DNA from: Candidatus Rifleibacteriota bacterium
GTDB lineage: Bacteria; Muiribacteriota; Ozemobacteria; Ozemobacterales; Ozemobacteraceae
Direction: 5' to 3'
Length of the DNA: 64,000 nt
NCBI GenBank assembly: GCA_017417215.1
Contig: JAFPZP010000010.1
Span: 10,155-74,154, forward strand
Shown: in pieces, positions 15,144 to 63,721 of the stretch
How the letters are laid out: each line of letters starts with the position of its first letter
Position numbering within the stretch: the first letter of the stretch is position 1
The notes under the pieces: model-generated
What the model saw: only the letters and a program-made list of their open reading frames with translations
Database searches by the model: none
What the model was told of the DNA's origin: nothing
Program-made: the position numbers and the translations under genes

Positions 15144-15160
15144 TTGGGTGAAGTGTATTT

Positions 15161-18789: not shown

Positions 18790-19247
18790 TGATTAATAAT
18801 AATTATAAAAAAATAAAAGGTTTTTCTTTGGTTGAAATTAGTATTGTTGGTGCAATACTTCTTATTTTCCTTATTCCTGTTATTACTTTGATGTCAAGAG
18901 GTAGTTCAGGCACTATTCGTAATAGAAATGAAATATTAGCTCAGCAATATGCTTCAAATTATATAGCTTATTCTAATCTACAAAAATTTGATAGTGAAAA
19001 ATTGCAAGAAACTACTGAAGAAAAGCTTGTAGATGAATTGAAGTTGGAAAAAAACGGTGAAACTTTTGCTTTAATAGATAAGCTTGAAGATGATTTGTTT
19101 AAAAGATATGTTTCTATTAAAGATTTCCCTGCTACAGATGAAATCCCCTACAACTATAAGGTTGTTACTGTTAGAGTTGAATGGTTGCAACCAGGTGAAA
19201 AAAACAAAAGAAACGTAACAATGTCAGGGTTGGTGAATGAACGATGA
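18786..19247 (+). CDS. Prepilin-type N-terminal cleavage/methylation-domain protein (pseudopilin/minor-pilin-like)
   Basis: The N-terminus ...KGFSLVEISIVGAILLIFLIPVI matches the G-F-(T/S)-L-(I/V)-E class III signal motif plus a hydrophobic helix. Confidence 0.55.
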   Translation: MMINNNYKKIKGFSLVEISIVGAILLIFLIPVITLMSRGSSGTIRNRNEILAQQYASNYIAYSNLQKFDSEKLQETTEEKLVDELKLEKNGETFALIDKLEDDLFKRYVSIKDFPATDEIPYNYKVVTVRVEWLQPGEKNKRNVTMSGLVNER

Positions 19248-19816
19248 ATATAAACAGAAGAAAAGCGGTCACTTTGGTTGAAGTTGTTATATGTGTCGTT
19301 CTTTTTGCAATGCTGATAGCTGGTTTAATGAGAGTATTCAGTTCCGGTATGAAGACATCTGTTAAAGGTCTTGCTCATCAGGCAAATATGGAAACAGCTT
19401 CTATTATCATGTCTCAGATTGAATATGACTTGTTGAGAGCAACCAATATTCTACAACCAGATATAAATCTCTCTGAAGATTTTGATAAAGCGATTTGGAA
19501 TTTTTATTACGGCGATTCCGAAATTAACTCACCAGCAACAGTAACTTATACAAGATTAGATAATGGAGTAGGAGTAAGCAGAGAAGTTAAACTGGCTGAT
19601 GGCAAAACTATGAGTAATATTTTTGCCAGGGATCAGAAAGTTGAATTGAGTTTTAAAAATCTAAGAGTTAATAACGGTACTTCTGATGTTCCTTTTTATA
19701 AGCATGCTATGCTTGTAAAGCTGACTGTTTCAACAAGAGATTCTAAAAAGGTAGGTACTAATCCAGAAGAAGCTTTTTCTTTAAGCAGACTAATAATTAT
19801 TCGCGGACACGAGTAA
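19244..19816 (+). CDS. Prepilin-type N-terminal domain protein (pseudopilin-like)
   Basis: RRKAVTLVEVVICVVLFAMLIAGLM is a type IV pilin-like N-terminus (TLVE). It overlaps the previous gene by 4 nt. Confidence 0.5.
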   Translation: MNINRRKAVTLVEVVICVVLFAMLIAGLMRVFSSGMKTSVKGLAHQANMETASIIMSQIEYDLLRATNILQPDINLSEDFDKAIWNFYYGDSEINSPATVTYTRLDNGVGVSREVKLADGKTMSNIFARDQKVELSFKNLRVNNGTSDVPFYKHAMLVKLTVSTRDSKKVGTNPEEAFSLSRLIIIRGHE

Positions 19817-47990: not shown

Positions 47991-48845
47991 TTAATCATTC
48001 AAGGGTTTACCACAGTATTTGCAGTATTTGGCGTCAGCGTCATGCCCTTCTTTACAGCAAAATGGGCAAGTTTGAGTGGTTATTTTATTTTTTTGCGGAA
48101 AAATCATTTCTGAGGTTACTATTCCTGTTGGAATAGCTATGATTCCATAGCCTAAAAGCATAATAAAGAAGGAAAAAGCTTGCCCCATCGGTGTCTTGGG
48201 CGATATGTCTCCATAACCAACTGTAGTAAGTGTAACAACAGCCCAATAAACGCTAACAGGGATACTGGTAAAACCATTTTCAGCACCTTCTATAACATAC
48301 ATTACAGAGCCTAAGCAAAATACAATTATGAATACATAAAATGTGAATACAGCTATTCTTTTGATGCTTCGCTTCAGAGAATAGAGCATATTCTCAACTT
48401 CGTGTGTGAAATGAACTAATTTGAATAGCCTGAAAACTCGTATGAATCTCAATATTCTGACTACTGATAGATATTGAAAATCTTGAAGACTAGGAATAAT
48501 ACTAAAATAATTTGGCAAAATAGATATTAAATCTATTATTCCAAAAAAGCTTATAGCATAATGCAGGGGCTTAGCTACACAATATAGTCTCAAAAAATAC
48601 TCTATTGTGAAAAGTATAGTGATTGTCCATTCTACATAATTAAAAAGAGTTCCATATGCAAGACGGTATTTTTCTACGCTGTCTAAAGAAGTAACGAAAA
48701 CACTTATAAAAATACAGATTAATAAAGCAACATCGAAGGCTTTTCCCCAAAAAGTATCTGCTTCAAAAATAATTTCGTGAATCTTTTTTTGTAATGGGGA
48801 AAGAGAAGGAGTGTGTCTGATTTCAGAATAGTTTAGCTTTATCAT
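47991..48845 (-). CDS. Voltage-gated-like K+ channel (Ion_trans) with a C-terminal zinc-ribbon tail
   Basis: The K+ selectivity filter TVGYGD, an S4-like RILRFIRVFRLFKL, and the C-terminus CPFCCKEGHDADAKYCKYCGKPL. Confidence 0.7.
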   Translation of the reverse strand: MIKLNYSEIRHTPSLSPLQKKIHEIIFEADTFWGKAFDVALLICIFISVFVTSLDSVEKYRLAYGTLFNYVEWTITILFTIEYFLRLYCVAKPLHYAISFFGIIDLISILPNYFSIIPSLQDFQYLSVVRILRFIRVFRLFKLVHFTHEVENMLYSLKRSIKRIAVFTFYVFIIVFCLGSVMYVIEGAENGFTSIPVSVYWAVVTLTTVGYGDISPKTPMGQAFSFFIMLLGYGIIAIPTGIVTSEMIFPQKNKITTQTCPFCCKEGHDADAKYCKYCGKPLND

Positions 48846-49190: not shown

Positions 49191-52100
49191 ATGAGTGTAA
49201 CTGTTGCAACTGAAACAGCTTCGCAGACAAATTCTTCTGCAGCTCCATCTACAACTGCCGCAGCGGCTCCTGCTGCAAACAATACTGCTAATTCTTTACC
49301 GCAGCAATACCAGACCAAAAAGGCTATGTGGGAACGAAAGCTTCTAGACTTAGGTTTGAGAAACCAGCTTATCAATATGCGCAAGTCTCGCACGCTGATT
49401 CCTCTTATAACTAATACAATTAACGAACTAGAAGACGCCTTGGCTGATGGTGAAGAATTCTTAATAACTGCAAAACCGGAAAAAACAGTATTTTCAGAAG
49501 AAGAATTCAAATTTGATGATTTATTAAAAACAGAAATCAAAGATGAAGATCTACAAAAGGAATTCGCAAAACACCATTTGTTTTCATCATTAACAGAAGG
49601 CGAATTAAAGAAAGCAATAAAAGAAGTCTACCGCTCAGCCAAAAGTTCTATCGAAGAAAACGGCGCCAATACTCTTTATTTGGCTCTTGGTCTTTTAAAA
49701 TGGTTTGAATCTAAGGGGAATAATCCGCCTGCCCGTTATGCACCGATTATTCTTTACCCAATAGATATAATCAGAAAATCAGCAGCTCAAGGCTACACAA
49801 TCAGTCTTAGAGACGATGACCCACAGCTCAACATAACAATGCTAGAAAAGCTGAAACAGGATTTCAGAATTGAAGTTGAAGGTTTGGATCCTCTTCCTCT
49901 AGATGAACACGGGCTAGACACACGTAAAATTTTTGAGACAATACGTGAATATGTTAAACCTCAGGAAAACTGGGAAGTTATAGAAGTTGCTGCAGTAGGT
50001 ATATTCTCCTTTACTCAGTTTGTAATGTGGAACGACCTGACCAACCGTTCTGACGACCTAATTAAGAATAAAATAGTCAAGAGTTTGTTGGAAGGCAAAC
50101 TCACCTGGGAAGCTGAAGGCATGGAAACTGGCGACCACGTCTGCGAAGATGATGTTTTTATGGCTATGCCAACAGACGCTTCTCAGCTTTTTGCTGTCAG
50201 AAGTGCTTGCGAAAACAAGTCTTTCGTTCTTCACGGTCCTCCAGGAACAGGTAAATCTCAGACTATTACTTCTTTGATTGCAAATGCCTTAGGGCAGAAT
50301 AAAACCGTTTTATTTGTAGCAGAAAAGATGGCTGCTCTAGAAGTAGTTCAAAAACGTCTTGCTTCTATTGGCTTAGACCCATTCTGCTTAGAACTTCATT
50401 CAAATAAATCTCGCAAAAAAGCTGTTTTGGAAAAATTACAGCAGACTACAGAATTCCGCAGACCTAAAGCAAGCGATGATTATAAGCAGAAAGCAGAAGA
50501 AATATCCAAACTTCGCAAAGAACTTAATGTTTATTCCGAAGACCTTCATAAGAAGCAAAGCTATGGTTTAAGCATATATGAGCTTATAAATGAATATGAA
50601 CTAAATTCAGACTTTCCCGATATTCCTGCTTTTTCTCAAGAAGCTTTAGGGAATGTTACTAAGGAACTACTCGACAAGCAGAATCAGATTATTGAATCCT
50701 TAATTACTTCTGCTCGTGCTGTTGGTCACCCTGCTGAACATGCTCTTTCAAGAGTAGGTTGTAAAGAATACAACCAGAGTCTTAAAGACGACCTTAATTC
50801 TAAGGCTACAAAATACTTGAATAATCTAGAAAAGCTAAAAGAATTAGCTGACGAATTCAAGAATAAAGCAGAACTAACAAATTTAGATGACGACATTGAA
50901 TGGACAAAACTTTTAACAACTGCTGAACAGGTTGCCAAATGGTCATACTTACCAAAAGCCTGGGCTGACCACAAAGGCATGAATATTTGCATGACTGAAA
51001 TAGCCGAAATGGCTGACCATTTCGCAAAGTCAAAAGAATTGCGCACTGAACTTGAAAAGAACTGGAAGCCAGAATTTTTCGATCAGAATGGTAGCGAACT
51101 TTCAGCTACTCATACTCAGAAGAGTAATTCCTGGTTTATTCCTAGATTCTTCGGGTTATGGAGCTTGAAAAGCAAAGTTTCATCTTTTGCAAAATCTTCT
51201 GTTAATGCAGATACTTTAGGCAAAGATCTTTCAGACCTTTCTTTATACCAGTCTGAAAAAGCTAAGGCTGATGAATTATTTAAAAAATACACTGCTGAAC
51301 TTGATTCTCTTTATGATGGTGAAAACACCGATTGGAACAAGGTTAAAACTTATGCTGTAGATGCAAAAGAAAGCTGCGCCAAACTTAACGAACTTTATAA
51401 TGATGAAGAACTTCGAATAAAGCTTTGTAGCAATAAAGAACTGACTCAAAAAGCTCAGGAAGTTCAAAAGGCAAACGAAACAAGACTTTCTTCCCAGAAA
51501 GAATTTGCTGAAGTTGCTATGCCAAAGCCTGTTAATCAGTTTAATACGCCTGTTCTGGAAGACATAGAAATGTGTAAGAATATCAACAAGCACGTTGAAG
51601 GTATAAAAGAATGGACTCTTTGGAATAAAACCTCAAGCGAAGCAGAAGAAGCCGGTTTGGCTGTCCTTGTCGAAGCCTATCAAAAGGGTATGGATCACGA
51701 CGATATAAAGGGAGCTTATTTAAAATCTATCAGTAAAGGCCTTGCTGCTCGTGCTATAGATGCTTCTAGCACTCTTAATAACTTCTCTGGGAAGGTATTT
51801 GACCAGAAAGTAGACAAATTCATAACTCTTGATAAACAGGTCAGCGCTCTTGGAAACCGTGAAATAGTCTATCGTTTGGCTGCAAAACTTCCTGACTTTA
51901 CTAGAGAGGCTGCTCAAAGCTCTGAACTAGGCATTTTACAAAGAGCTATCAAGAGCGGGGGTAGGGGAACCTCATTAAGAAAGCTTTTTGGGCAGATTCC
52001 TAATATTCTTCCAAGACTCTGTCCCTGTATGCTCATGAGCCCTATATCTGTTGCTCAATATATCGACCCCAATAAATCACCTTTCGATCTGGTAATCTTC

Positions 52101-53963
52101 GACGAAGCTTCACAGCTTACAACCAGCAAAGCAGTTGGTGTTTTGGCTCGTGGTCAGAATGCAGTAATCGTTGGTGACCCCAAGCAGATGCCGCCGACTT
52201 CATTCTTCTCTTCTGCTGCAGTTGATGAAGATAACCTTGATTTGGAAGATATGGAAAGTATTCTCGACGACTGCTTAGCCTTGAATATGCCTCAAACTCA
52301 TTTGTTATGGCACTACAGAAGTAAACACGAAAGCTTGATAGCTTTCAGTAACCATAACTTCTACGAAAGCAAGCTTTTCACTTTCCCATCAGTAGACGAC
52401 AGAGAATCTAAGGTTAATTTCGTTCCCGTAAAAGGCACTTTTGACCACGGTTCTGGCAAGCGCTACAACAAAGAGGAAGCCGAAGCTGTTGTTAAAGAAC
52501 TGATTCGCAGAAGCAAAGACCCCAAACTTTCTAAATACAGTGTTGGTGTTGTCACTTTCAACATTCCTCAGCAGAACCTCATCGACGACCTCTTTACTGA
52601 AGCCTGTAAGACAGACTTAGAACTTGAAAGCTGGGCTTATAAGAAAGAAGATCCGTTATTCATCAAGAATCTTGAAAATGTTCAAGGTGATGAACGCGAT
52701 GTAATCATATTCTCAGTCGGTTACGGACCAGACAAAGAAGGCAAAGTCTCTATGAACTTCGGTCCGTTGAACAAAGACGGCGGTTGGCGCAGACTTAACG
52801 TTGCTGTTTCCCGTTCTAAACGCGAAATGATGGTATTCAGCTCTATGCTGCCGGAACACATAGACACCAACAAGACCAAAGCAGAAGGCGTTATCGCTCT
52901 TAGAAACTTCCTTGATTTTGCTAGGAATCCGAAAGGCTATTCTTTCTCTGCTGAAAAGAATGCTGCTCAAAACGGCATTATAAAGAGTCTTAGCAAAATT
53001 TTGAAAGAACAGGGTTATTCTGTAGATACCAACATTGGTAATTCTGAATTCAAGATTGATTTAGGCGTAATCGACCCGAGAAATGAAAACAGATATCTTC
53101 TCGGTATTTTGCTCGACGGACCTGTTTATGCAGAATGCAAGACCACCAGAGACCGTGAACTTTCACAGGCAAGTGTTCTTAGAGGCTTAGGCTGGAACAT
53201 CATTAGAATGTGGAGTATGGATTGGTGGGAAAACAAGGATATTGAAGTTGACAAGCTGTTAGATAAACTAGACAAGCTTAAAAACGACAAATCCATAGAA
53301 CCAGAAAAGAAAGAAGAACCAAAAGCAGAGCTGAAACCTGTTGAATACGAAGAACCAGGCACTGCTCCTGCCTCTGACTCTGGAATATTTGCCAAACCTT
53401 ATACTGCAACTCAATTACCTCAAACTTCATTGTCATCAGATGATTTTATGGCTAGAAAGAACGCAGCAGAGCTCAAAAAGCGTGCTATGAAAGTAATTGA
53501 AACAGAAGCTCCTATCACAGAAGGTTTGCTTACCAAACGTCTGATTCAAAGCTATGGAATAACAAGAGTTGGAACACGTGTTCAGGCATATTTAGACGAA
53601 TTCTATGCAAATCTTTCTTTAAAAACCACAACTCAGTCTGACGGTCAAAAGATTTACTGGAATCCAAAGCAGAATCCTGATGATTACAGCGATTGCAGAG
53701 CAGGCAAAACAGATGCTGACAAACGTGATTCTAAGGATATTCCAATAATAGAAGCCTCTAATGCTGTTTACAAAATCGTTTCAGATCAGATTGCACTCTC
53801 TTCTGAAGATTTAGCCAAGGAAGCGGCAAAACAGCTTGGCTTCTCACGTCTCGGCACAAATCTTACAACTCTTATGGATGCCGCCGTAGAAATGAACAAA
53901 GCCGCCGGCTACCTGACCGTCGCTGAAAACGGCAACATCACCCTGAACAAAACAGAAAACTAA
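49191..53963 (+). CDS. Large DUF4011 - SF1 (Upf1/DNA2-like, COG1112) helicase - Vsr/PD-(D/E)xK-like endonuclease - DUF3320 protein; a candidate defence helicase
   Basis: The N-terminus WERKLLDLGLRNQLINMRKS is DUF4011-like. Walker A is LHGPPGTGKSQTITSLI. VIVGDPKQMPPTSFF, VTFNIPQQ and VQGDERDVIIFSVGY are SF1 motifs. C-terminal GNSEFKIDLGVIDPRNENRYLLGILLDGPVYAECKTTRDRELSQASVLRGLGWNIIRMWSMDWW is a Vsr-like REase segment, followed by a DUF3320-like tail. Confidence 0.75.
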   Translation: MSVTVATETASQTNSSAAPSTTAAAAPAANNTANSLPQQYQTKKAMWERKLLDLGLRNQLINMRKSRTLIPLITNTINELEDALADGEEFLITAKPEKTVFSEEEFKFDDLLKTEIKDEDLQKEFAKHHLFSSLTEGELKKAIKEVYRSAKSSIEENGANTLYLALGLLKWFESKGNNPPARYAPIILYPIDIIRKSAAQGYTISLRDDDPQLNITMLEKLKQDFRIEVEGLDPLPLDEHGLDTRKIFETIREYVKPQENWEVIEVAAVGIFSFTQFVMWNDLTNRSDDLIKNKIVKSLLEGKLTWEAEGMETGDHVCEDDVFMAMPTDASQLFAVRSACENKSFVLHGPPGTGKSQTITSLIANALGQNKTVLFVAEKMAALEVVQKRLASIGLDPFCLELHSNKSRKKAVLEKLQQTTEFRRPKASDDYKQKAEEISKLRKELNVYSEDLHKKQSYGLSIYELINEYELNSDFPDIPAFSQEALGNVTKELLDKQNQIIESLITSARAVGHPAEHALSRVGCKEYNQSLKDDLNSKATKYLNNLEKLKELADEFKNKAELTNLDDDIEWTKLLTTAEQVAKWSYLPKAWADHKGMNICMTEIAEMADHFAKSKELRTELEKNWKPEFFDQNGSELSATHTQKSNSWFIPRFFGLWSLKSKVSSFAKSSVNADTLGKDLSDLSLYQSEKAKADELFKKYTAELDSLYDGENTDWNKVKTYAVDAKESCAKLNELYNDEELRIKLCSNKELTQKAQEVQKANETRLSSQKEFAEVAMPKPVNQFNTPVLEDIEMCKNINKHVEGIKEWTLWNKTSSEAEEAGLAVLVEAYQKGMDHDDIKGAYLKSISKGLAARAIDASSTLNNFSGKVFDQKVDKFITLDKQVSALGNREIVYRLAAKLPDFTREAAQSSELGILQRAIKSGGRGTSLRKLFGQIPNILPRLCPCMLMSPISVAQYIDPNKSPFDLVIFDEASQLTTSKAVGVLARGQNAVIVGDPKQMPPTSFFSSAAVDEDNLDLEDMESILDDCLALNMPQTHLLWHYRSKHESLIAFSNHNFYESKLFTFPSVDDRESKVNFVPVKGTFDHGSGKRYNKEEAEAVVKELIRRSKDPKLSKYSVGVVTFNIPQQNLIDDLFTEACKTDLELESWAYKKEDPLFIKNLENVQGDERDVIIFSVGYGPDKEGKVSMNFGPLNKDGGWRRLNVAVSRSKREMMVFSSMLPEHIDTNKTKAEGVIALRNFLDFARNPKGYSFSAEKNAAQNGIIKSLSKILKEQGYSVDTNIGNSEFKIDLGVIDPRNENRYLLGILLDGPVYAECKTTRDRELSQASVLRGLGWNIIRMWSMDWWENKDIEVDKLLDKLDKLKNDKSIEPEKKEEPKAELKPVEYEEPGTAPASDSGIFAKPYTATQLPQTSLSSDDFMARKNAAELKKRAMKVIETEAPITEGLLTKRLIQSYGITRVGTRVQAYLDEFYANLSLKTTTQSDGQKIYWNPKQNPDDYSDCRAGKTDADKRDSKDIPIIEASNAVYKIVSDQIALSSEDLAKEAAKQLGFSRLGTNLTTLMDAAVEMNKAAGYLTVAENGNITLNKTEN

Positions 53964-56428: not shown

Positions 56429-58633
56429 ATGAGAAAACTACGAAAAAAACATACTGTTTTACTATTTATATTATTAATCCTTTCCTGCTTGTTACTGATT
56501 GCAGTCGATGAAGCCTTTGCTCGTGCCGGCGGTGGTGGTGGCGGAGGCGGCGGAGGTGGCGGCGGAGGCGGCGGTCACGGTGGCCGCGGCGGTAAAGGCG
56601 AAACACTAATATTGGATCTTTTTGTTAGCAGTTGTAAAACACGTGGTATTGCAACAACTCTGTTGCTTTTTTCCCCTTTTATATTGTTTCATTTTACAAG
56701 TTGTTTTGCAGCTTCATTTTATTATAAAGAAAAGGCTTTATCCAGAGTTTTGTTCTTTCTAGGAGCCTTCTTTTTTGGTGGCATTTTTTGTTTTTCGTGT
56801 TTTGGAACTATTTTTTTAGTTTTACCTATTGAATGTGTGACATTAAAAACCATTATAGAGTCAAGAATCAAATATGGTCGTTTTATTACTTGTAACGAAG
56901 AACAATCTAAAAAATTCTCCACAGATAATACACCAAAAGAAAAATTAGCTTTAATGAAAATAAAAAAGAATAATCCTTCTTTTTCATTAACAGATTTTAA
57001 AACAAGAATAAAAAAAGCTTTTAAAATTATTCAGGATTCTTGGATGGATCAGGATTTATCAAATGCGGAAATGTTCTTAGCTGATGGAACTTATGAACAG
57101 TTTCAAATACAAATAAACGGAATGATTAAGGACAATACCGTAGATATAATGAAAGAGCTGGAAATCCAAAATGTTTTTGCAATAAAAGCAGAAAACTCTT
57201 TTGATTATGATTCTATATATGTAGCAATTCAAGCAAAAGCCATTAATTATTTAATGAATAAAAGAACAAAAGCTATCATAAAAGGAGATTCTACAGAACC
57301 TGAATTATTTGCAGAAGTTTGGTGCTTCATGCGAAGAAAAGGGGCTAAAGAATTAAACAGCAAAGGCTTAATAGAAGGATACTGTCCTAATTGCGGAACA
57401 CATATAGAAGGAGCAAGATTAATACAGTGCCCTTCTTGCAATGCTTTGCTAAAATCTGGTCAGCATGACTGGATTCTTGCCGGCATTTATCAGTCTTCTG
57501 AATGGAGAGACACTCATAATTCACATATTCCTGGATTGAAAAATTTATATAAATATGACCCTTCATTTAACATACAGAATATAGAAGATAAACTCTCAGC
57601 CATTTTCTGGCGTATGATTGAAGCTGTTAGAAACCAGAGTGCCGATTCTATTCTTAAAATATCATCAGATAAATTTGCCCAGGATTTTATAAAATCATCT
57701 TTCAAACACAAAGAAATATCAAGATATAATAAAGCTGGAACAGATTCTATTGAAATAATAGGTATTTCAGAAGAAGACGGCAAACATGTACTCTTAGGAC
57801 AAGTTATATGGAATAGTTGTATAACACGAAATGGCAAAGAAGAAACTATTCATCAAAAATCTGTCTTTATTCTTAAAAGAGATATTAATACCAAAACAGA
57901 TACAAGAAAATGCTTCTGTAGTTCACATTGTATAAATTGCGGAGCAGCAGAAACTTTTAACAGCAGTAATTACTGCGAATACTGCAATACTGCAGTTAAT
58001 GACGATAAAAAAGATTGGATTCTTACAGATATTTGTAATATATCTGATCTTTTAATAGGAAAATACCTAAATCATGCTAATATTTATGATAAAAAGGAAG
58101 TTGTTGTTAATCAGGAAAAGACTGTAGCCAAAGCTAATCAAATTATTGCAGAGCCTACAGATTACAATGATTCTACTGAAGAAGAATATGAAGACGATTC
58201 TCTGGATATCAATTTCTGGAGCCTATTAGGCAAATACTCAGTAAAAGATCTGCTTAGAATGTGCATAGCTGTAATGCTTGCAGATGGAGTAATAGACAAA
58301 AACGAATTACAAATAATCAGAAAAATCTGTGAAATAGGCTATATCCCCGAAGAAGTTCTTCAAATGAATATAAGAGAAATGCAAAACGCAGATAATCCTA
58401 TTGAACATGTTTTAGAAACATCAGCAATAGGATTAGATAAAGATTTGCTCAAATTATTAATTAAAATAGCCGTCTCAGATGGAGATGTAGCAAAATCTGA
58501 AGTTGATATAATCTTTAAGATGTCAGAAAAGATGCATGTTTCAAGAAATGAAACCATTGATTCCATAAATAATATTTATGAGAAAAGATGGAAAAAGAAA
58601 CTAGATCAGTCTATTTTTTCCCAAAGGTTTTGA
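56429..58633 (+). CDS. Membrane protein: signal/TM, (Gly)n tract, two TM helices, two Tim44-like domains each carrying an inserted CxxC...CxxC zinc ribbon, and a C-terminal TerB-like domain
   Basis: ARAGGGGGGGGGGGGGGGGHGGRGG. Repeat 1: FAEVWCFMRR...CPNCG...CPSCN...HDWILAGI. Repeat 2: VFILKRD...CINCG...CEYCN...KDWILTDI. The C-terminus LLRMCIAVMLADGVIDKNELQIIRKICEIG ... LLIKIAVSDGDVAKSEVDIIFKMSEKM is TerB-like. Confidence 0.5.
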   Translation: MRKLRKKHTVLLFILLILSCLLLIAVDEAFARAGGGGGGGGGGGGGGGGHGGRGGKGETLILDLFVSSCKTRGIATTLLLFSPFILFHFTSCFAASFYYKEKALSRVLFFLGAFFFGGIFCFSCFGTIFLVLPIECVTLKTIIESRIKYGRFITCNEEQSKKFSTDNTPKEKLALMKIKKNNPSFSLTDFKTRIKKAFKIIQDSWMDQDLSNAEMFLADGTYEQFQIQINGMIKDNTVDIMKELEIQNVFAIKAENSFDYDSIYVAIQAKAINYLMNKRTKAIIKGDSTEPELFAEVWCFMRRKGAKELNSKGLIEGYCPNCGTHIEGARLIQCPSCNALLKSGQHDWILAGIYQSSEWRDTHNSHIPGLKNLYKYDPSFNIQNIEDKLSAIFWRMIEAVRNQSADSILKISSDKFAQDFIKSSFKHKEISRYNKAGTDSIEIIGISEEDGKHVLLGQVIWNSCITRNGKEETIHQKSVFILKRDINTKTDTRKCFCSSHCINCGAAETFNSSNYCEYCNTAVNDDKKDWILTDICNISDLLIGKYLNHANIYDKKEVVVNQEKTVAKANQIIAEPTDYNDSTEEEYEDDSLDINFWSLLGKYSVKDLLRMCIAVMLADGVIDKNELQIIRKICEIGYIPEEVLQMNIREMQNADNPIEHVLETSAIGLDKDLLKLLIKIAVSDGDVAKSEVDIIFKMSEKMHVSRNETIDSINNIYEKRWKKKLDQSIFSQRF

Positions 58634-60269
58634 GAATTTCAGTTCTTAGTGTACCAGCACCTGAATTATGAATTAGGAATAAATGCTGGTTCTTGTTAAT
58701 GCAGGCTCTTACCTGGAAAAGATACAGGTGGCCTGCGTAGCTGGTCATAACAACTGCAACATCGCATCTTCCAACTATTTCGTTGGTTCTTGCCTGGCTT
58801 ATGGTGTGGAAACCTTCATACCATTCATAATCAGAATCTTCAACACCGGCTTCTTTTAATGTTGGCCAGTATTGTTCACGGCTACCACCGCCAAAAATAA
58901 CTATTCTTTTGCCCTTCATCAATCCTTCAACAGAATTAGCATTTTCATCGGGAAGAGCATTTAATTGTCTGAGTTTTGCTGTTAATTCCTGATTTTCATT
59001 ATCAAGTTTTCTGAATTCACTGCGCAGCAAAGCATCTTCTTCAAGAGTTTCTTTGAGTTCTTTGTTGGCGGCATTAACTTTAGCTTCTGCAGCAGAAAGC
59101 TGTTTCCTGACTTCTGCTGGGTCGAGTTTTGATAACTTAACTTTTATTTCTTCGTTTTCGATTTTTACTGCTCTGGCTTCGGCTTTAGCTTCATCTCTTT
59201 CTATGATAAGCTTGTTAATTTGTTCTTTAAGCTTATCTGCATCAGAGCGCATTTCACCTATCTTTTCCTGAAGTTCTTCCTTGGTTAATTCAAAATCTTT
59301 TAAGGAAATATTAGGTCTTGTTTGGTTGAAATGCTTTAAAACGAAGTGGTGATGCGTATAAACTTCGAGAATATCTTTTAAATAATCTTCGTAGGCTTCC
59401 TGTTTATCTTCGTTTGGTGGAAATTCTGTTTGAACGTCTTTTATTAAAAGCTTCAAAAGTTTTTTCCCGTCTCTGTAAGCTTTGTCGACATCATCATAAA
59501 AAGTAGGTCTTACAAGATTAAGATTTCTTGTTTTATTGAATATTTCATCAAGATACTTGAAATTATCTGCATCTAAAAGCTTCCAGAATCTGATAACATC
59601 AGCAGGTTTTATTTCGTATCGAAGTTCACTTAAAACCTTGTCTAATGCTTCTTTCCTTTGGTCTTCGCTGTTAGGTATATCTTCGTTTTCATTCTGCTTA
59701 CAGATAGTATCTATCTGTTTTACAAGCTTTTTAAAAGCTGGAAACTCATCGCTATCAAGGAATAAAGTAGCCAAAAAACTTTTTCTTTTTAGGAAATGTC
59801 TAGAGAAAACTCTTTTTTCTCCGCCGATTTCAACATCATATTTTGAACTAATTTTGCCACCGACATTATATTTTTTCTTTTTCTTGGCTGCTTCTTCTAA
59901 GGCTTCAGCTTCACGTGCCTTGCGGATTTTTGCCAGTTTTTCTTCTATCATTTCACTGACAAGACGGGCTTGAACAGGTCCGCTCAGCATAATATCCAAT
60001 AAATCGCCGATAAATAAAGCGAAAGCTCGACCATTTTTGTCGTAAGCTTCGGCAAATTTTTTATGTATATTCCAATAACGGTTTTCTTCTTCTTCTATTT
60101 TGCTTTCTGGTTTTGCTTTTGTTTCTTTCTTTTTCATCAAGTCACCAGCAAGTTGTGTGACCATATTTTTCCCTTTTGATGATGGGGAAAAACCAGCTAG
60201 TTTTTCTAATTCATCTAAGTTTTTCTTTTGACTTCTGGAAAGATTAAGACCGTCTAATGGGTTTAACAT
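58611..60269 (-). CDS. Coiled-coil protein with a C-terminal DUF2325-like Rossmann-like domain
   Basis: A long Glu/Lys heptad region (residues ~330-440) is followed by a C-terminal domain with GKRIVIFGGG and CDVAVVMTSYAGH motifs (quoted in full in the findings). The DUF2325 call is from memory of that family's hvivGG / aDlVivftdyvsH pattern. Confidence 0.4.
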   Translation of the reverse strand: MLNPLDGLNLSRSQKKNLDELEKLAGFSPSSKGKNMVTQLAGDLMKKKETKAKPESKIEEEENRYWNIHKKFAEAYDKNGRAFALFIGDLLDIMLSGPVQARLVSEMIEEKLAKIRKAREAEALEEAAKKKKKYNVGGKISSKYDVEIGGEKRVFSRHFLKRKSFLATLFLDSDEFPAFKKLVKQIDTICKQNENEDIPNSEDQRKEALDKVLSELRYEIKPADVIRFWKLLDADNFKYLDEIFNKTRNLNLVRPTFYDDVDKAYRDGKKLLKLLIKDVQTEFPPNEDKQEAYEDYLKDILEVYTHHHFVLKHFNQTRPNISLKDFELTKEELQEKIGEMRSDADKLKEQINKLIIERDEAKAEARAVKIENEEIKVKLSKLDPAEVRKQLSAAEAKVNAANKELKETLEEDALLRSEFRKLDNENQELTAKLRQLNALPDENANSVEGLMKGKRIVIFGGGSREQYWPTLKEAGVEDSDYEWYEGFHTISQARTNEIVGRCDVAVVMTSYAGHLYLFQVRACINKNQHLFLIHNSGAGTLRTEILKTFGKK

Positions 60270-60305
60270 AAGTGTGACTTCCTGATTATTTTTTAGTTTA
60301 ATAGT

Positions 60306-61748
60306 TTAAGCTATTTGATTGCCGCCGCGCTTGCGAGCAAGTTTTAATGCTTTTTCAGCCATTTTTAATAAATCGCCTGGTTTAGTTGTAGCTCCTGAGC
60401 TACTTGCCAAACCAAAGCTTCCAGTTAGCATAATGGTTTGATTGCTAGCTCTTACCTTAGTCTGACTAAGTGATTGTTTTAATTTATTGGCTGCAACTAA
60501 GGCTCCGGTATATGGTGTTTCTGGAAGAAGCATAGCAAAACTGTCTGCGCCGAATCTGGCAACCAAGTCATGTATTCTTGTTGCAGAGCGGAACATTTTT
60601 CCAACTTCTTTCAAAAGTTTGTTACCAGTGTTTTCGCCGTAGGTTTCGTTAACTGTTGAAAAATGGTCTAGATCCATGATGATTAATGAAATATCTTTTC
60701 TGTAGCGCTGTGCTCTGCAAAATTCTTCTGTAAGTCTTTGCATAAAAAGATTTTCATTGGCTATGCCTGTAATTGGGTCTGTTGTTGCAGAATAATACAT
60801 TTTTGTTCTATTTATGGCTACAGAAGCTTGAGCAGCAAATATCTTCATCATCTGATCTGTTCTTGAAGTCATAATATTGCCAGAATGCTTGGTATCAACA
60901 TAAAGTACACCAATATTGCTGGACATTTCTTTTAATGGAACTATGGCAACAGATAGTATTCCAACGTCTTCTGGGCTTTTAAACTTGGGATTTGGATTCC
61001 TGAAGTTATGGGAAGGCCCTATCAAAGATTCACCTGTGTCGAAACATTTGCTTACCAAAAATGAAGTAGCTTGCATATCTTCGGTAACTTCACTGTTATC
61101 GAAATTAATCATAGAAACTGTTTCTAATCTGCCAAGTTCTTCGTTGAAAAGCATCATTAATGCTCTTTCACCGCCGGTTACATTTATTGCCATTTCCAAA
61201 GTGAAGTCAAGAAGTCTTGGAAAGCTTTCAATTGAATTTAATGCATAACTGACTTCTAAAACTGCTGAAAGCTCTTTGATACGGGTAACCATTTCGCCTT
61301 CTGTAGCAGATAATGCAGGGTAATACTGACGCGGAATCTTTGAACGTATTGTTGCAAAACTTTTACGAACAAAGTTTTCGTTACTATTTAAGAAAAATGG
61401 GAAAAATCTGTCGCTGTCAGGGCTGACAGAAGCTTCGTTACCTTCAAGTTGCAGAGAGACAAAGACATCGTCAGACATTTCTATAAAACAACCAGGATTA
61501 ATTGTAGCAATAAAACCTGGCTGGATTTTTTCGCCATTCACGATTGTACCATATGGGCTTTGTAAATCCTGTAATGTCAGGTAACCGTCTGAATTATAGC
61601 GAAGCTGAATCTGTCGACGAGAAATGCCCATCTTATTTAACTGAATATCGCAGTCGTTACCGCTGCCTATTACAACACCGTCACCATGCAAACTGGGGCT
61701 TCCTTCGTAAAGAATCTGCCCATTTTTATCTGTAATTAAAACTTTCAT
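60306..61748 (-). CDS. FHA domain - GAF domain - degenerate GGDEF domain protein (A-site GADSF, I-site RIHD intact); a likely c-di-GMP-binding, non-catalytic signalling protein
   Basis: The N-terminus VVIGSGNDCDIQLNKMGISRRQIQLRYNSDGYLTLQDLQSPYGTIVNGEKI is FHA. The middle region, with TGGERALMML, is GAF-like. The C-terminal TTDPITGIANENLF...IIMDLDHFSTVNETYG...RIHDLVARFGADSFAMLLP is GGDEF with GGDEF replaced by GADSF. Confidence 0.7.
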   Translation of the reverse strand: MKVLITDKNGQILYEGSPSLHGDGVVIGSGNDCDIQLNKMGISRRQIQLRYNSDGYLTLQDLQSPYGTIVNGEKIQPGFIATINPGCFIEMSDDVFVSLQLEGNEASVSPDSDRFFPFFLNSNENFVRKSFATIRSKIPRQYYPALSATEGEMVTRIKELSAVLEVSYALNSIESFPRLLDFTLEMAINVTGGERALMMLFNEELGRLETVSMINFDNSEVTEDMQATSFLVSKCFDTGESLIGPSHNFRNPNPKFKSPEDVGILSVAIVPLKEMSSNIGVLYVDTKHSGNIMTSRTDQMMKIFAAQASVAINRTKMYYSATTDPITGIANENLFMQRLTEEFCRAQRYRKDISLIIMDLDHFSTVNETYGENTGNKLLKEVGKMFRSATRIHDLVARFGADSFAMLLPETPYTGALVAANKLKQSLSQTKVRASNQTIMLTGSFGLASSSGATTKPGDLLKMAEKALKLARKRGGNQIA

Positions 61749-62125
61749 TTCTTAACCTTATATCCACATTTGCAAACTTTTTTTGCCCCCAATACACGAC
61801 CACATTCAGGACAATATTTGCTTACGTGGCTGGCAATCTTTTTCTCTGCGGCTTTTAGCTTTCGCTTTTCTTCTAGCTTTTTGGCCATTTCAAGGAAAGC
61901 CAGTCCTTCTTCTTCACTAACAGCTTTATTTTTAGCAGCACCACTAATCATTTCTTCATATTTTTCAGAATAATCAGGGTTTTCTTCAAGGTAGGCTTTA
62001 AAAGCTTTTTGTGGGTCTTTGTGCTTTTTGTACAAATGTTCATAAGAATAAATAGGTTCTTCTTCGAGCTTTTCTTCGCATATTGCAATGAATTTTTCTT
62101 CCCAAATATCATAAGGGTCTTGCAT
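61745..62125 (-). CDS. Small acidic protein with a C-terminal CPxCG...CKCG zinc ribbon; first gene of the FHA-GGDEF operon
   Basis: 126 aa with a Glu/Lys-rich body. The C-terminus is YCPECGRVLGAKKVCKCGYKV. Its stop overlaps the downstream gene start by 4 nt. Confidence 0.4.
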   Translation of the reverse strand: MQDPYDIWEEKFIAICEEKLEEEPIYSYEHLYKKHKDPQKAFKAYLEENPDYSEKYEEMISGAAKNKAVSEEEGLAFLEMAKKLEEKRKLKAAEKKIASHVSKYCPECGRVLGAKKVCKCGYKVKK

Positions 62126-62157
62126 TTATTGTCACCTGCCTTTGCTACTAATGAGGA

Positions 62158-62186
62158 TTATACCTTAATAATTATTAATTATCAAT
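62158..62186 (-). promoter_or_regulatory. Candidate sigma70-type promoter for the minus-strand zinc-ribbon/FHA-GGDEF/DUF2325 operon
   Basis: On the minus strand: TTGATA, a 17-nt spacer, then TATAAT. The RBS and ATG at 62125 lie downstream. Confidence 0.4.
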
Positions 62187-62215: not shown

Positions 62216-62244
62216 TTGACAGTATGGCGATATTTATGTACAAT
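62216..62244 (+). promoter_or_regulatory. Candidate consensus sigma70 promoter for the C11 peptidase gene
   Basis: TTGACA at 62216-62221, a 17-nt spacer (gtatggcgatatttatg), then TACAAT at 62239-62244. It lies about 45 nt upstream of the AGGAG RBS of the 62291 gene. Confidence 0.45.
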
Positions 62245-62290: not shown

Positions 62291-63721
62291 ATGAAAAAGA
62301 CTTCTATATTGGCTGTAGCAGCTCTGATAGTTGGTTTATGCTCCTCTTCATATGCAGCATCTAATGCTCAGAAAAACGTAAAAAAGAATGCTGAAAAAGA
62401 ATGGACATTGGCAGTATTCCTTAATGCTGACAACAATCTCGACAGATTTGGTGTAGCAGACCAGGAAGAAATGAGCCGTGTAGGTTCTAATGAATATCTT
62501 AATATTGTTTCTTTAATTGACCGTGAAAACGGACCAGCACAAATAAACTACATTGAAAAAGACAATATTAAAAAGCTGAAAGACTTAGGCGAACTCGATA
62601 TGGGTGACTATAAAGAGTTTGTTAAATTTGTAAAATTCGTAAAAGAAAACTATCCTGCAAAACACTATTGTTTTTCTTTCTGGAACCATGGTTCAGGCTG
62701 GAAAGATAAAAACGATGCCGCTTCTGTTTTAAAGGGTATTTCTTACGACGATTCAAGCCACAACCATATTTCAACCAACGATTTAACAGTAGCTTTAGCA
62801 GAAGCCAACAAGATTCTCGGTAAAAAAATCGATATGCTCTGCTTTGACGCCTGCTTGATGCAAATGGTTGAAGTTGCATATGCAGCAAAAGATCATGTTG
62901 ATTATATGGTCGGTTCTGAAGAAACAGAACCAGGCAAAGGCGCTCCTTATGATGATATTCTTAAGACTTTGAAAAAAGGCATGAGCCCAAAAGAATTTGC
63001 AATCAGTTGGGTTAATGCTTTCGGTGATTCTTATAACGGTGGCAGCCAGGGAAAAGCAAAATCAACTCAATCTGCTCTTGAAATGAGCAAGTTGCCTCAA
63101 TTTATTGATGCAATCAATGGTTTTGCAAAAGTAGGCATGTCTAAAGATTATTCAAGATTCTTCAGACAAATGAATGTCTATACTCAGAAATATGCTTATC
63201 CAGACAACATGGATTTACTTCATTTTGTTGAATTAATGACTGAACCAACAGGTCTCAACAGTTTGGAAGAATTAAAGAAGCAGAATGTTGATGAAGCTAT
63301 GAAGACAGCCATAAAGAAGCTTCAAACAGCTGGCAAGCAGTTGATTATTGCTAACAGATTCACAACTCCAGAAGCTCAGGAATCAAAAGGTATTGCTATA
63401 TTCTTCCCAACTTCATATTATTGCCCATGGCTCTATCAAGACCTTGCTTTTGCAAAGGATACTCTTTGGGACGATATGCTTGAAGCTCAAGGCGGATATG
63501 CAGTAATGAACAGAATTTCTGAAGATGTTAAGAAGGGTGAACTTGAATCTTTGGCTAAGTTAGTAAAAGACGCCAAGAAAGACCCCAAAAACAAAGTTTA
63601 CCGCAGAGTTCTTGTTCAGCTTAACTATATTGCTGATAATGAACGCGCTGTTCCTGCTAAGTCTAAGGCAGAATTTGAAAATCTACGTGGTAAATTGAAA
63701 TCAGCCATAGCTACTAAGTAA
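62291..63721 (+). CDS. Secreted clostripain-like cysteine peptidase (MEROPS family C11)
   Basis: Signal peptide. The catalytic His is in FWNHGSGW and the catalytic Cys in CFDACLMQMVEV, with C11-typical spacing. Length is 476 aa. Confidence 0.65.
   Translation: MKKTSILAVAALIVGLCSSSYAASNAQKNVKKNAEKEWTLAVFLNADNNLDRFGVADQEEMSRVGSNEYLNIVSLIDRENGPAQINYIEKDNIKKLKDLGELDMGDYKEFVKFVKFVKENYPAKHYCFSFWNHGSGWKDKNDAASVLKGISYDDSSHNHISTNDLTVALAEANKILGKKIDMLCFDACLMQMVEVAYAAKDHVDYMVGSEETEPGKGAPYDDILKTLKKGMSPKEFAISWVNAFGDSYNGGSQGKAKSTQSALEMSKLPQFIDAINGFAKVGMSKDYSRFFRQMNVYTQKYAYPDNMDLLHFVELMTEPTGLNSLEELKKQNVDEAMKTAIKKLQTAGKQLIIANRFTTPEAQESKGIAIFFPTSYYCPWLYQDLAFAKDTLWDDMLEAQGGYAVMNRISEDVKKGELESLAKLVKDAKKDPKNKVYRRVLVQLNYIADNERAVPAKSKAEFENLRGKLKSAIATK

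Follow-up and report, generated by a model that had tools for sequence, protein, structure and literature searches.

A gene pair essentially confined to Riflebacteria may encode a c-di-GMP receptor and its coiled-coil adaptor

Three closely packed minus-strand genes, encoding a zinc-ribbon protein, an FHA-GAF-GGDEF protein and a coiled-coil/DUF2325-like protein, lie in a 64,000-nucleotide stretch of DNA from a Candidatus Rifleibacteriota bacterium (hereafter the window), which is core chromosome carrying the dcw cluster and AcrAB-TolC. We propose tentatively, with slightly less than even confidence, that the functional unit is not a three-gene effector system, but a Riflebacteria-specific two-gene pair consisting of a c-di-GMP receptor and an adaptor. 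The FHA-GAF-GGDEF protein would be a cytoplasmic sensor and the coiled-coil protein its fixed partner, probably a dimeric coiled-coil adaptor.

All three genes are real ORFs and, judged from their sequences, probably co-transcribed (Table 1). The close packing described by a sequence-only reading of this DNA can be read directly: the zinc-ribbon and FHA genes share a 4-nt overlap (ATGA), and a gap of 36 nt, within which a caggaag ribosome-binding site is found, separates the FHA gene from the coiled-coil gene. The promoter proposed by the same reading is kept as TTG[A/C]TA-17-TATAAT in four sister species (L011, L012, L013 and L034), with diverging sequence farther 5'; region-wide, promoter-like sites are not in excess (14 versus 11.8 +/- 2.5 in shuffled sequence). 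Both the operon junctions and the promoter-like site are kept within the window's clade. That the genes match no described system was borne out by the lack of a PADLOC match, an NCBIfam equivalog or a solved-structure relative.

Table 1 Features of the three-gene locus (positions in the window).
Feature	Position	Strand	Remarks
Promoter-like site, sigma-70 type, TTGATA-17-TATAAT	62157-62185	minus	5' of zinc-ribbon gene; 11/12 positions (scan)
Ribosome-binding region AAAGGCAGGTG	62133-62143	minus	before zinc-ribbon ORF; invariant in 5/5 aligned species
Zinc-ribbon ORF, 126 aa	61745-62125	minus	ORF list; first gene of transcription unit
FHA-GAF-GGDEF ORF, 480 aa	60306-61748	minus	first member of conserved pair
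FHA domain, residues 25-90	61479-61676	minus	PF00498, E 4e-13; non-canonical
GAF domain, residues 175-312	60813-61226	minus	weak: GAF_2 28.1, GAF 24.4, GAF_3 22.2 bits
GGDEF domain, residues 321-478	60315-60788	minus	PF00990, 120.8 bits, E 6e-35; degenerate active site
RIHDLVARFGADSF, residues 391-404	60537-60578	minus	RxxD I-site motif, then degenerate A-site
Coiled-coil/DUF2325-like ORF, 552 aa	58611-60269	minus	second member of conserved pair
Helical N-terminal domain, residues 55-317	59319-60107	minus	ends in invariant YTHHHFVxK (304-312)
Coiled-coil hairpin, residues 323-435	58965-59303	minus	helices 323-381 and 384-435; AlphaFold2 and alignment
DUF2325-like four-stranded alpha/beta domain, residues 456-549	58623-58904	minus	

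Of 45 informative species-level loci, 44 have the FHA-GAF-GGDEF gene directly 5' of the coiled-coil gene, the two being 17-197 nt apart; in L047 the coiled-coil gene is present without the FHA-GGDEF gene. The 47 genome loci represent one per species genome, the exception being bin STD2_83 with two contigs, and the pair is syntenic with a core chromosomal neighbourhood of trx, glgB and dxs. Divergence of both proteins parallels that of the housekeeping protein GlgB, identities to the window (coiled-coil protein/FHA protein/GlgB) being 93/92/99% in L012, 78/85/88% in L008, 66/69/77% in L006 and 48/46/71% in L001. By sequence comparison, the pair is single-copy and vertically inherited throughout the uncultured phylum Riflebacteria, to which the family is essentially confined. 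A search with the coiled-coil protein returned 124 homologues; the best 120 of these share 44-100% identity, and all source-named entries among these 120 are Riflebacteria, Rifleibacteriota or Ozemobacteraceae. Just 20 matches (E<=1e-3) were found among 1.84 billion representative proteins.

The zinc-ribbon gene does not share this distribution: it accompanies the pair in no more than 5 of the 47 loci, those of the window and of its closest clade (L011-L013 and L034); co-occurrence with the other two genes, on which a three-gene module would depend, thus stands for the pair and fails for the first gene. As had been read from the sequence, this gene encodes a small acidic CPxCG protein: it is helical and carries at its C-terminus a C4 zinc ribbon (CPECG-x9-CKCG), the four cysteines of which (C105, C108, C118 and C120) are invariant in 24 homologues. 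It belongs to no Pfam or NCBIfam family, and its AlphaFold2 model (pLDDT 67; helices followed by the ribbon) gave no fold match in a structure search. The 33 homologues returned by a search are 54-96% identical, the few source-named ones coming from Riflebacteria-type bins, one of them labelled Erysipelotrichia. Elsewhere the gene keeps other company. In L008 it runs on the opposite strand and overlaps a DEAD-box helicase gene at that gene's start; in L014 a DEAD-box helicase gene stands between it and the pair (order Zn, DEAD-box helicase, FHA, coiled-coil); and in L009 and L010 its convergent neighbour is a Tim44/TerB gene, neither a GGDEF nor a DUF2325 gene being close by. The window has the pair exactly between the zinc-ribbon and Tim44/TerB genes. 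Such placements speak for an operon of convenience, in which the genes are mere neighbours and the zinc-ribbon protein has an unrelated function (connected, for example, with the DEAD-box helicase or Tim44/TerB), its gene having supplied no more than a promoter following a local rearrangement. The only counterpoint for the zinc-ribbon gene is the 4-nt overlap kept in five species; for the pair, however, convenience is contradicted by adjacency in nearly all loci over 44-93% protein identity, and we hold this explanation of the locus to be rather unlikely. The zinc-ribbon gene is a clade-specific addition, outside the phylum-wide unit.

The pair appears to serve housekeeping signalling rather than defence against phages. 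The sequence-only reading had envisaged an effector module gated by second messengers, possibly a conflict or stress system, in a region with a defence-type helicase and TerB; as a rival explanation, the three genes would be an anti-phage or stress module and part of a defence island with these two. A PDC-S37/Hhe-type helicase-nuclease is indeed detected by PADLOC near the three genes (49191-53963, 1198 bits), and the convergent neighbour of the operon encodes a TerB-domain protein. Defence systems commonly use nucleotide second messengers and coiled-coil proteins. However, the helicase is absent at the equivalent position in all relatives, even in the 93%-identical L012, and is an independent, strain-specific insertion, with GlgB and the Tim44/TerB gene lying between it and the pair. 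PADLOC yields no significant match for any of the three proteins (best E ~0.005, 12-14 bits), and domain and structure searches with them detected no nuclease, protease, pore or NADase effector domain. G+C content is unremarkable, and neither patchy presence among strains nor a mobile-island location of the pair was seen. Set against the single-copy, phylum-wide, syntenic occurrence of the pair and its GlgB-like divergence, the defence interpretation is extremely improbable.

The three domains attributed to the second gene were recovered by Pfam/NCBIfam matches. The FHA region also matches Yop-YscD_cpl (35.6 bits). In an alignment to Mycobacterium tuberculosis FhaA (2lc1/3po8), the GR, SRRH and STNGT motifs of FhaA are GS, SRRQ and SPYGT in the window protein, so that one of the four canonical pThr-contact residues is kept and three are absent. 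Only 4 of the 46 orthologs retain GR, and F, Y, M or L takes the place of the Asn in all those that cover the region. The role of phospho-Thr reader, proposed earlier for this domain, is therefore doubtful on sequence grounds.

The combination of a degenerate A-site with an intact I-site, also proposed earlier, holds for the window protein, in which RxxD lies five residues before GADSF, the replacement of GGDEF. The I-site R[IV][HN]D is invariant (46/46 orthologs), while at the A-site 8 of the orthologs have GGDEF, 2 have SGEEF and 31 a G[AP]D[ST]F-like sequence. In the window protein, Asn takes the place of the base-binding Asp of GxxGD (TGNKLL), whereas AGDQVL is found in L001, an ortholog that bears GGDEF; secondary catalytic residues of the domain decay alongside the A-site. 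The degeneracy is not a family trait: orthologs of the Ozemobacter clade retain GGDEF, and, as these alignments indicate, it arose within one lineage as a derived state. In such basal lineages, the complete active site would probably make the protein a product-inhibited diguanylate cyclase. Because in the window's lineage the A-site has decayed (GADSF for GGDEF; base-binding Asp to Asn) and the RxxD I-site is retained, the window protein is most likely a c-di-GMP-binding receptor or scaffold; from these motifs we infer a mode similar to that of PelD, PopA or CdgA.

The third gene encodes, as the earlier reading had it, a 552-aa coiled-coil protein with a C-terminal Rossmann-like domain, which is DUF2325-like by a sub-threshold Pfam match (residues 456-545, 27.6 bits, under the cut-off of 33.6). 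In an AlphaFold2 model (pLDDT 76.9) a helical domain and a two-helix hairpin precede a four-stranded alpha/beta domain; the whole layout runs from a disordered N-terminus through the helical domain and the coiled-coil hairpin to the DUF2325-like domain, which is divergent and contains no Cys. The LDPxEV turn of the hairpin is invariant and a patch formed by R416-R420-D423-E425-N426-Q427 is conserved; invariant residues outside heptad positions are present in the coiled coil, and others in loops of the DUF2325-like domain. We infer that this polar patch, together with the glycine-rich loops FGG, TSYAGH and HNSGAG of the flavodoxin-fold domain, forms a putative ligand- or protein-binding site. 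Since a structure search returned only generic neighbours for the DUF2325-like domain, ligand binding by this domain is a conjecture. Five publications mentioning DUF2325 give no function for it.

Downstream of the pair, 28 of 44 loci have an ECF sigma gene within 500 nt, usually at a distance of 37-86 nt. It is followed by a gene for a zinc-binding anti-sigma factor with an N-terminal HxxxCxxC and a hydrophobic, probably membrane-spanning segment, and often next by a thioredoxin gene. This ancestral sigma/anti-sigma link had not been noted in the sequence-only reading. Ancestrally, the pair would have been followed by, and probably co-transcribed with, these genes, and therefore its original output was probably sigma-factor-dependent transcription, which the gene order suggests to be of an envelope or thiol-stress type. 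Since 13 of the 44 loci, the window included, have no ECF sigma gene, the sigma factor is not an obligatory output of the pair. The window's clade, in which the sigma/anti-sigma pair is absent at the locus, would have lost it from there and put the small, phylum-restricted zinc-ribbon gene with its promoter before the pair.

The same neighbourhood can be read as a metal or redox module, in which the coiled-coil protein, like its Cys-rich relatives, acts as the sensor by way of either its DUF2325-like site or its invariant His motif, and the FHA-GAF-GGDEF protein and the anti-sigma/ECF/thioredoxin genes relay thiol-oxidative or metal stress. The HxxxCxxC anti-sigma gene and the frequent thioredoxin agree with this, and so do two features of canonical coiled-coil DUF2325 proteins (PF10087): the His-motif helix is common to both families, and in Desulfobacterota their genes adjoin FeoB (24), FeoA (20) and DtxR-type repressor (22) genes among 82 loci. 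In Campylobacter jejuni, reactive-oxygen stress induces no gene more strongly than that of the DUF2325 protein Cj1384c (PMC9426514), which earlier reports cited in that paper put under PerR and RacRS control; this also favours a metal/redox role. However, all Riflebacteria orthologs lack the Cys cluster by which the canonical domain is defined, no Feo or DtxR gene was called close to the pair in the loci that were inspected, the thioredoxin adjacency may be mere conserved core synteny, and the window locus has neither the sigma/anti-sigma pair nor a thioredoxin at the pair. We regard a metal/redox module as quite unlikely. Overall, the domains, packing, promoter and novelty described in the sequence-only reading stand; the three-gene unit and the defence role are not supported, and the phospho-Thr reader is doubtful.

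The c-di-GMP receptor and adaptor pair that we favour can be compared with several known systems. PelD of Pseudomonas aeruginosa and PopA of Caulobacter crescentus are degenerate-GGDEF receptors whose RxxD I-site binds c-di-GMP, and in PelD a GAF domain directly precedes the degenerate GGDEF domain. The window protein shares the degenerate A-site and the retained RxxD with both, from which c-di-GMP binding is predicted, and the GAF-GGDEF order with PelD. Unlike them, it has neither the membrane segment of PelD nor the receiver domains of PopA, carries an N-terminal FHA domain, is found in one phylum only and has orthologs that still bear GGDEF; its partner is the coiled-coil DUF2325-like protein, in contrast to the Pel synthase (PelD) or RcdA/CtrA (PopA).

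In Bdellovibrio DgcB, the FHA domain reportedly governs activation of the cyclase by way of a phosphorylated peptide. DgcB (Bd0742), an FHA-GGDEF diguanylate cyclase (PMC6733907), likewise has an N-terminal FHA before GGDEF. It is, however, catalytically active and without GAF, whereas the window protein has a GAF domain, a degenerate A-site and an FHA domain with only one of four pThr-contact residues left.

Canonical coiled-coil DUF2325 proteins, such as Desulfonema magnum P0181 and the small Cj1384c, have a homologous His-motif helix, coiled coil and DUF2325 domain (hhalign 97.3%; HMM alignments), with the positions GG, [YH]xG[YF], RxD, xxH and S in common. They are 300-440 aa long with a CPxNCNSHxAC Cys cluster, whereas the Riflebacteria proteins are 540-565 aa long, lack this cluster and have a different, larger N-terminal domain. 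The Riflebacteria gene is tied to the FHA-GAF-GGDEF gene, in contrast to the FeoAB and DtxR neighbours of the canonical genes; because a GGDEF gene is linked to only 1 of 82 canonical loci, a c-di-GMP role is not transferable from the wider DUF2325 family.

In Streptomyces, RsiG is a coiled-coil anti-sigma factor that binds c-di-GMP and acts with sigma WhiG. The Riflebacteria coiled-coil protein lacks the E(X)3S(X)2R(X)3Q(X)3D motif of RsiG and any sequence similarity to it, and the Riflebacteria sigma factor, unlike WhiG, is of the ECF type with its own zinc-binding anti-sigma factor. An antiparallel coiled-coil hairpin encoded beside c-di-GMP and sigma-factor genes is nevertheless common to both, and RsiG offers a conceptual precedent only.

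The three minus-strand ORFs of the sequence-only reading lie exactly where it had placed them, with the junctions and the promoter-like site that it described. The zinc-ribbon and FHA-GAF-GGDEF genes overlap by 4 nt in an ATGA, while a 36-nt spacer carrying caggaag separates the latter from the coiled-coil/DUF2325-like gene. Promoter-like sites are not enriched in the region (14 vs 11.8 +/- 2.5 in shuffled sequence). The TTGATA-17-TATAAT site and the ribosome-binding sequence AAAGGCAGGTG are kept in four other species, and we regard this block, set against the diverged DNA farther upstream, as a small phylogenetic footprint. A sequence scan found no minus-strand terminator-like site between the three genes; the sole minus-strand match falls within the coiled-coil gene, the last of the unit, whose 3' end overlaps the convergent plus-strand gene for a Tim44-like/zinc-ribbon/TerB protein by 23 nt. 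On the other side, a clostripain-family (C11) peptidase gene, encoding an N-terminal signal-like sequence, diverges from the putative operon and shares a 165-nt intergenic region with it. A second strong promoter-like site, TTGACA-17-TACAAT, faces this gene, and the same neighbour is present in L012 (a sister species) and L008.

Positions of the three-gene unit and of the other window features discussed in the text
Feature	Position	Strand
Zinc-ribbon ORF, 126 aa	61745-62125	minus
FHA-GAF-GGDEF ORF, 480 aa	60306-61748	minus
Coiled-coil/DUF2325-like ORF, 552 aa	58611-60269	minus
Promoter-like site TTGATA-17-TATAAT	62185-62157	minus
Terminator-like match within the coiled-coil gene	58736-58724	minus
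Promoter-like site TTGACA-17-TACAAT	62216-62244	
C11 peptidase gene	62291-63721	plus
Tim44/TerB gene, 734 aa	56429-58633	plus
DUF4011/AAA_11/AAA_12/MTES_1575 nuclease/DUF3320 helicase gene, 1590 aa	49191-53963	plus
Ion-channel gene	47991-48845	
Block of SH3_3-domain and unannotated protein genes	14148-19816	plus

The domain composition proposed for the 480-aa protein holds: Pfam and NCBIfam place an FHA domain at residues 25-90, a GAF domain (weak match) at 175-312 and a GGDEF domain at 321-478, the last covering the full PF00990 profile (1-161; 120.8 bits, E 6e-35) and scoring 127.7 bits on TIGR00254. The degenerate active-site motif (A-site) and intact inhibitory motif (I-site) claimed for it are likewise present, GADSF standing in place of GG[D/E]EF and the RxxD motif RIHD lying at canonical spacing five residues upstream (RIHD-LVARF-GADSF, in the region RIHDLVARFGADSF). 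The metal Asp and the Asn are retained (MDLDHFSTVN) and the base-binding Asp of GxxGD is replaced by Asn (TGNKLL; the GGDEF-bearing Ozemobacter sibiricus ortholog, L001 6441-7997, retains AGDQVL), so that the set of substrate and metal residues (DxD metal Asp, Asn, base-binding Asp), whose roles we take to be those of PleD, is incomplete in the window protein. The I-site keeps the form R[IV][HN]D in all of 46 orthologs. The A-site reads GGDEF in eight (the Ozemobacter clade), SGEEF in two, GSDEF, GNDEF, ASDEF or GRDEF in four (some also without the metal Asp and Asn), G[AP]D[ST]F, GAETF or GSDSF in 31, and RNDLM in one. Because the I-site is invariant while the A-site varies, the family looks like an I-site-regulated cyclase in which catalysis has been lost repeatedly and a putative c-di-GMP-binding site kept.

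The FHA domain (PF00498, 50 bits, E 4e-13; Yop-YscD_cpl also matches, at 35.6 bits) had been taken for a phospho-Thr reader, a claim made doubtful by alignment to M. tuberculosis FhaA, where GS stands for GR, SRRQ for SRRH and SPYG for STNG. Among the canonical pThr contacts, which we take to be the Arg of GR, the Ser and His of SxxH and the Asn of NG, the window domain retains the Ser alone; the Asn is substituted in every ortholog covering the region and GR is retained in only four. Judged by these residues, the window FHA domain is non-canonical. In the Rifleibacterium clade the FHA-GGDEF gene is immediately preceded by a tandem array encoding HAMP-SpoIIE (PP2C-type phosphatase) proteins of ~970-990 aa (L006, 525-6432 and 14634-17635; L007, 432-6351), and L006, from Rifleibacterium amylolyticum, has such genes once more after glgB; they may be relevant to FHA/phospho-signalling input or may reflect the mere abundance of the gene family.

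In the AlphaFold2 model of the 552-aa protein (30-sequence alignment, pLDDT 76.9), a disordered N-terminus leads into a helical domain (55-317); a hairpin of two helices (323-381 and 384-435) comes next, and residues 456-549 form an alpha/beta domain with four strands. The protein's relation to DUF2325, suggested from the sequence together with the C-terminal alpha/beta domain, is upheld despite a PF10087 score of 27.6 bits, under the Pfam gathering cut-off of 33.6: most orthologs have precomputed PF10087 matches, and hhalign detected homology between the Riflebacteria alignment and that of the canonical members, which carry precomputed PF10087 matches themselves (97.3% probability, E 2.7e-11, 208 columns). 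Five related coiled-coil DUF2325 proteins, including P0167, score 77-98 bits on PF10087, and in the HMM alignment the His-motif helices of the Riflebacteria and canonical proteins match up as well. Outside the heptads, the Riflebacteria alignment conserves YTHHHFVxK (304-312), an LDPxEV turn and a patch of R416, R420, D423, E425, N426 and Q427; in the C-terminal domain, FGG (459-461), EAG, DxxWYxG, RT, VVxTxYAGHL and IHxSGxGxL are conserved. At the positions of the Cys cluster CPxNCxSHxAC the window protein has VVMTSYAGHL, with no Cys there in any of 30 orthologs. Solved-structure relatives sought by sequence amounted to coiled-coil noise (E>=0.012). A regular-expression scan found the RsiG-type motif E(X)3S(X)2R(X)3Q(X)3D in neither the window protein nor two orthologs, and an RsiG-type c-di-GMP-binding coiled coil was rejected, its defining motif being absent. 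A conserved N-terminal Thr as target of the FHA domain was dropped too, since the alignment conserves no Thr in the disordered N-terminus.

A Candidatus Riflebacteria MAG encodes a protein 100% identical to the 552-aa protein. A search with the latter gave 124 homologues, the best 120 of which span 44-100% identity, most at full length; those named by source among these 120 are all labelled Riflebacteria, Rifleibacteriota or Ozemobacteraceae. A profile search of 1.84 billion representative proteins returned only 20 matches at E<=1e-3, the full-length ones being the Riflebacteria family. One genome per GTDB species was scanned, giving 47 loci, all of Riflebacteria type (a few bins are mislabelled), with one locus per species genome except for bin STD2_83, which has two contigs. 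Synteny across the 47 loci was assessed by tblastn. In 44 of the 45 informative loci the next gene upstream of the coiled-coil gene, in the same orientation and across a gap of 17-197 nt, is the FHA-GAF-GGDEF gene, an arrangement that bears out the association of these two genes; the sole exception, L047, has unrelated genes at the FHA-GAF-GGDEF position.

An ECF sigma gene starts less than 500 nt downstream of the pair, typically at 37-86 nt, in 28 of 44 informative loci; it is 0.6-3 kb off in three and absent in 13. The gene after it encodes an N-terminal HxxxCxxC, a hydrophobic, probably membrane-spanning segment and a low-complexity Pro/Ala-rich region. Where the two genes stand together (L001, L003, L004, L006, L007 and 23 further loci), the ECF sigma factor is of ~190 aa and the protein that follows of 344-505 aa; the latter, which has no Pfam family, looks by its motif like a zinc-binding anti-sigma factor. 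The sigma/anti-sigma pair is missing at the locus in the window clade. Thioredoxin, glgB and dxs commonly come next after this region, and the identity of both pair proteins to those of the window drops in parallel with that of GlgB. The rest of the window, of even G+C, carries the dcw cluster (MurD-FtsW-MurG-FtsQ-FtsA-FtsZ), AcrAB-TolC, CheB, Dxs and GlgB. The pair locus belongs to the core chromosome and is inherited vertically. Riflebacteria are known for many phylum-specific gene families of no assigned function (PMC10849945). A literature search by phylum name gave metagenomic and genome surveys, and PMC10849945 makes no mention of the gene pair.

The 126-aa protein ends in CPECG-x9-CKCG, with C105, C108, C118 and C120 invariant in 24 sequences; two CxxC-type knuckles with four conserved Cys make it a C4 zinc ribbon of putative metal binding. 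Pfam/NCBIfam profile search gave no family match, nor did a fold search with its model (pLDDT 67), and the label "DksA" given by JGI to one homologue was discarded, no profile match supporting it. Adjacency of the zinc-ribbon and FHA genes is confined to the window and its sister species L011, L012, L013 and L034, whose coiled-coil proteins are at least 86% identical to that of the window. In L014 the order is zinc ribbon, DEAD-box helicase, FHA-GGDEF and coiled-coil gene, and L008 carries the zinc-ribbon gene on the other strand, with an overlap into the start of the helicase gene. In the distant genomes of L009 and L010 it is convergent with a Tim44/TerB gene, and no GGDEF or DUF2325 gene is near it; these convergent orthologs argue that the adjacency of zinc-ribbon and Tim44/TerB genes is older than that of zinc-ribbon and GGDEF genes. 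In the window the zinc-ribbon and Tim44/TerB genes flank the pair directly on either side, which points to a local rearrangement. On this comparison of gene orders, the zinc-ribbon gene is a late arrival beside the pair. The three-gene unit, real in the window and probably an operon, is clade-specific, because the zinc-ribbon gene abuts the FHA gene in the window clade only; the module conserved across relatives has two genes, ancestrally with the sigma/anti-sigma pair.

The Tim44/TerB protein itself has a run of ~17 Gly at its start, hydrophobic segments, a Tim44-like domain, CxxC zinc-ribbon pairs and two TerB-like repeats. Elsewhere in the window, a block of genes whose products either carry an SH3_3 domain or are unannotated (331, 327, 147, 734, 153 and 190 aa), mostly without Pfam family, resembles in size and order a block (L010, 1-4716) adjoining the zinc-ribbon gene of that distant genome.

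The weak matches of the 1.84-billion search are proteins of 290-440 aa that combine a coiled coil with a bona fide DUF2325 domain (77-98 bits). Of 82 loci of such canonical coiled-coil DUF2325 genes (L059-L140, Desulfobacterota metagenomes), only one, that of Desulfonema magnum (L059), has a neighbour detected by the GGDEF HMM, and a family-wide link of DUF2325 to GGDEF proteins or c-di-GMP was abandoned for that reason. The D. magnum cluster (CP061800.1; L059, 4441-8805), the only one of the 82 with c-di-GMP genes, comprises, in this order, a GGDEF gene, a 129-aa gene, the coiled-coil DUF2325 gene, two small ORFs and an HD_5-type HD-domain gene (probably HD-GYP), and adjoins a P-type ATPase and a FeoA gene. 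Unbiased clustering of the neighbours at the 82 loci gave FeoB at 24, FeoA at 20, a DtxR-type repressor with a FeoA domain at 22, and a small Cys-rich protein (~123 aa) at 32. The papers found to mention DUF2325 assign it no function and do not note the link to ferrous-iron uptake and regulation. This neighbourhood fits what is reported of the small Cys-rich Cj1384c: reactive-oxygen stress induces its gene more strongly than any other in C. jejuni, and earlier reports to which the same paper refers put it under the control of PerR and RacRS (PMC9426514). The Riflebacteria protein is thus a larger, Cys-less branch of a family associated with metals or redox, and has gained a new fixed partner. 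A further Cys-less DUF2325 variant with a coiled coil, P0164 (VVFFLTDVAGHKHF), occurs outside Riflebacteria; its 6.7-kb context at L141 (DUF4097, a cold-shock protein, FolD and PurD) is uninformative and was set aside as a clue to function.

The sequence-only reading had also raised a conflict or defence role, pointing to a helicase and a TerB protein nearby. The helicase indeed scores 1198 bits on PDC-S37, a PADLOC candidate single-gene defence system, and also matches Hhe. Its gene and an ion-channel gene occupy the interval between glgB and dxs, and two genes, glgB and Tim44/TerB, stand between the helicase gene and the putative operon. No related locus, not even the 93%-identical L012, has the helicase gene at the equivalent position, so it is an independent, strain-specific single-gene insertion, which is not evidence for the operon as a conflict system. 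PADLOC-DB 2.0 gave nothing significant for the three proteins (best E 0.005-0.009, 12-14.5 bits, mostly in the coiled-coil region), nor for the neighbours except the distant helicase. A patchy, island-like distribution of the pair was not seen over the 47 species-level loci, where core synteny is conserved. The defence interpretation was rejected on the lack of a significant PADLOC match and the strain-specific nature of the helicase insertion. The gene arrangement noticed from the sequence stands as an observation, and its interpretation is borne out in part only.

Gene order, motif states, fold class and phylum-wide coupling are shown by the analysis. Beyond these, we propose that the window FHA-GAF-GGDEF protein is catalytically inactive and would bind c-di-GMP at its I-site, like PelD and PopA, that it and the coiled-coil protein may act as a receptor-adaptor pair, that the GAF and atypical FHA domains would supply the inputs, and that the ancestral output would have been the adjacent ECF sigma/anti-sigma system. 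The pair looks like an uncharacterised, phylum-specific variant of c-di-GMP signalling, made up of a putative degenerate-GGDEF receptor and a novel fixed partner. A bolder reading, which we consider improbable, makes the coiled-coil/DUF2325-like proteins a new class of c-di-GMP effector. The FHA-GAF-GGDEF protein would make c-di-GMP in basal lineages, or capture and present the nucleotide in the window lineage; this would be read by the Arg/Asp/Gln patch of the hairpin or by a glycine-rich pocket of the Cys-less DUF2325-like domain, and the complex would gate the ECF sigma/anti-sigma switch. If true, DUF2325 would gain a first biochemical function and Riflebacteria a second-messenger-to-sigma-factor pathway of their own.

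The enzymes of c-di-GMP signalling are well understood, its receptors and outputs much less so. In this case a sensor with an invariant I-site, its catalytic site decaying in some lineages, is tied throughout a phylum to one partner with a divergent DUF2325 domain; the fixed pairing offers a concrete candidate receptor-adaptor pair, possibly a second-messenger input into an ECF sigma factor, and within a single orthologous group there is a natural gradation between cyclases that look active and receptors with the I-site only. In practice the importance is modest. These are uncultured bacteria of the rumen, gut and subsurface, and there is no hint of unusual enzymatic or defence activity. The window FHA-GAF-GGDEF protein has in common with the degenerate-GGDEF receptors of the PelD/PopA type an RxxD upstream of a degenerate A-site. 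Its coiled-coil partner departs from the canonical coiled-coil DUF2325 proteins of Desulfobacterota in having VV[VM]TSYAGHL where these carry the Cys cluster CPVNCNSHGAC.
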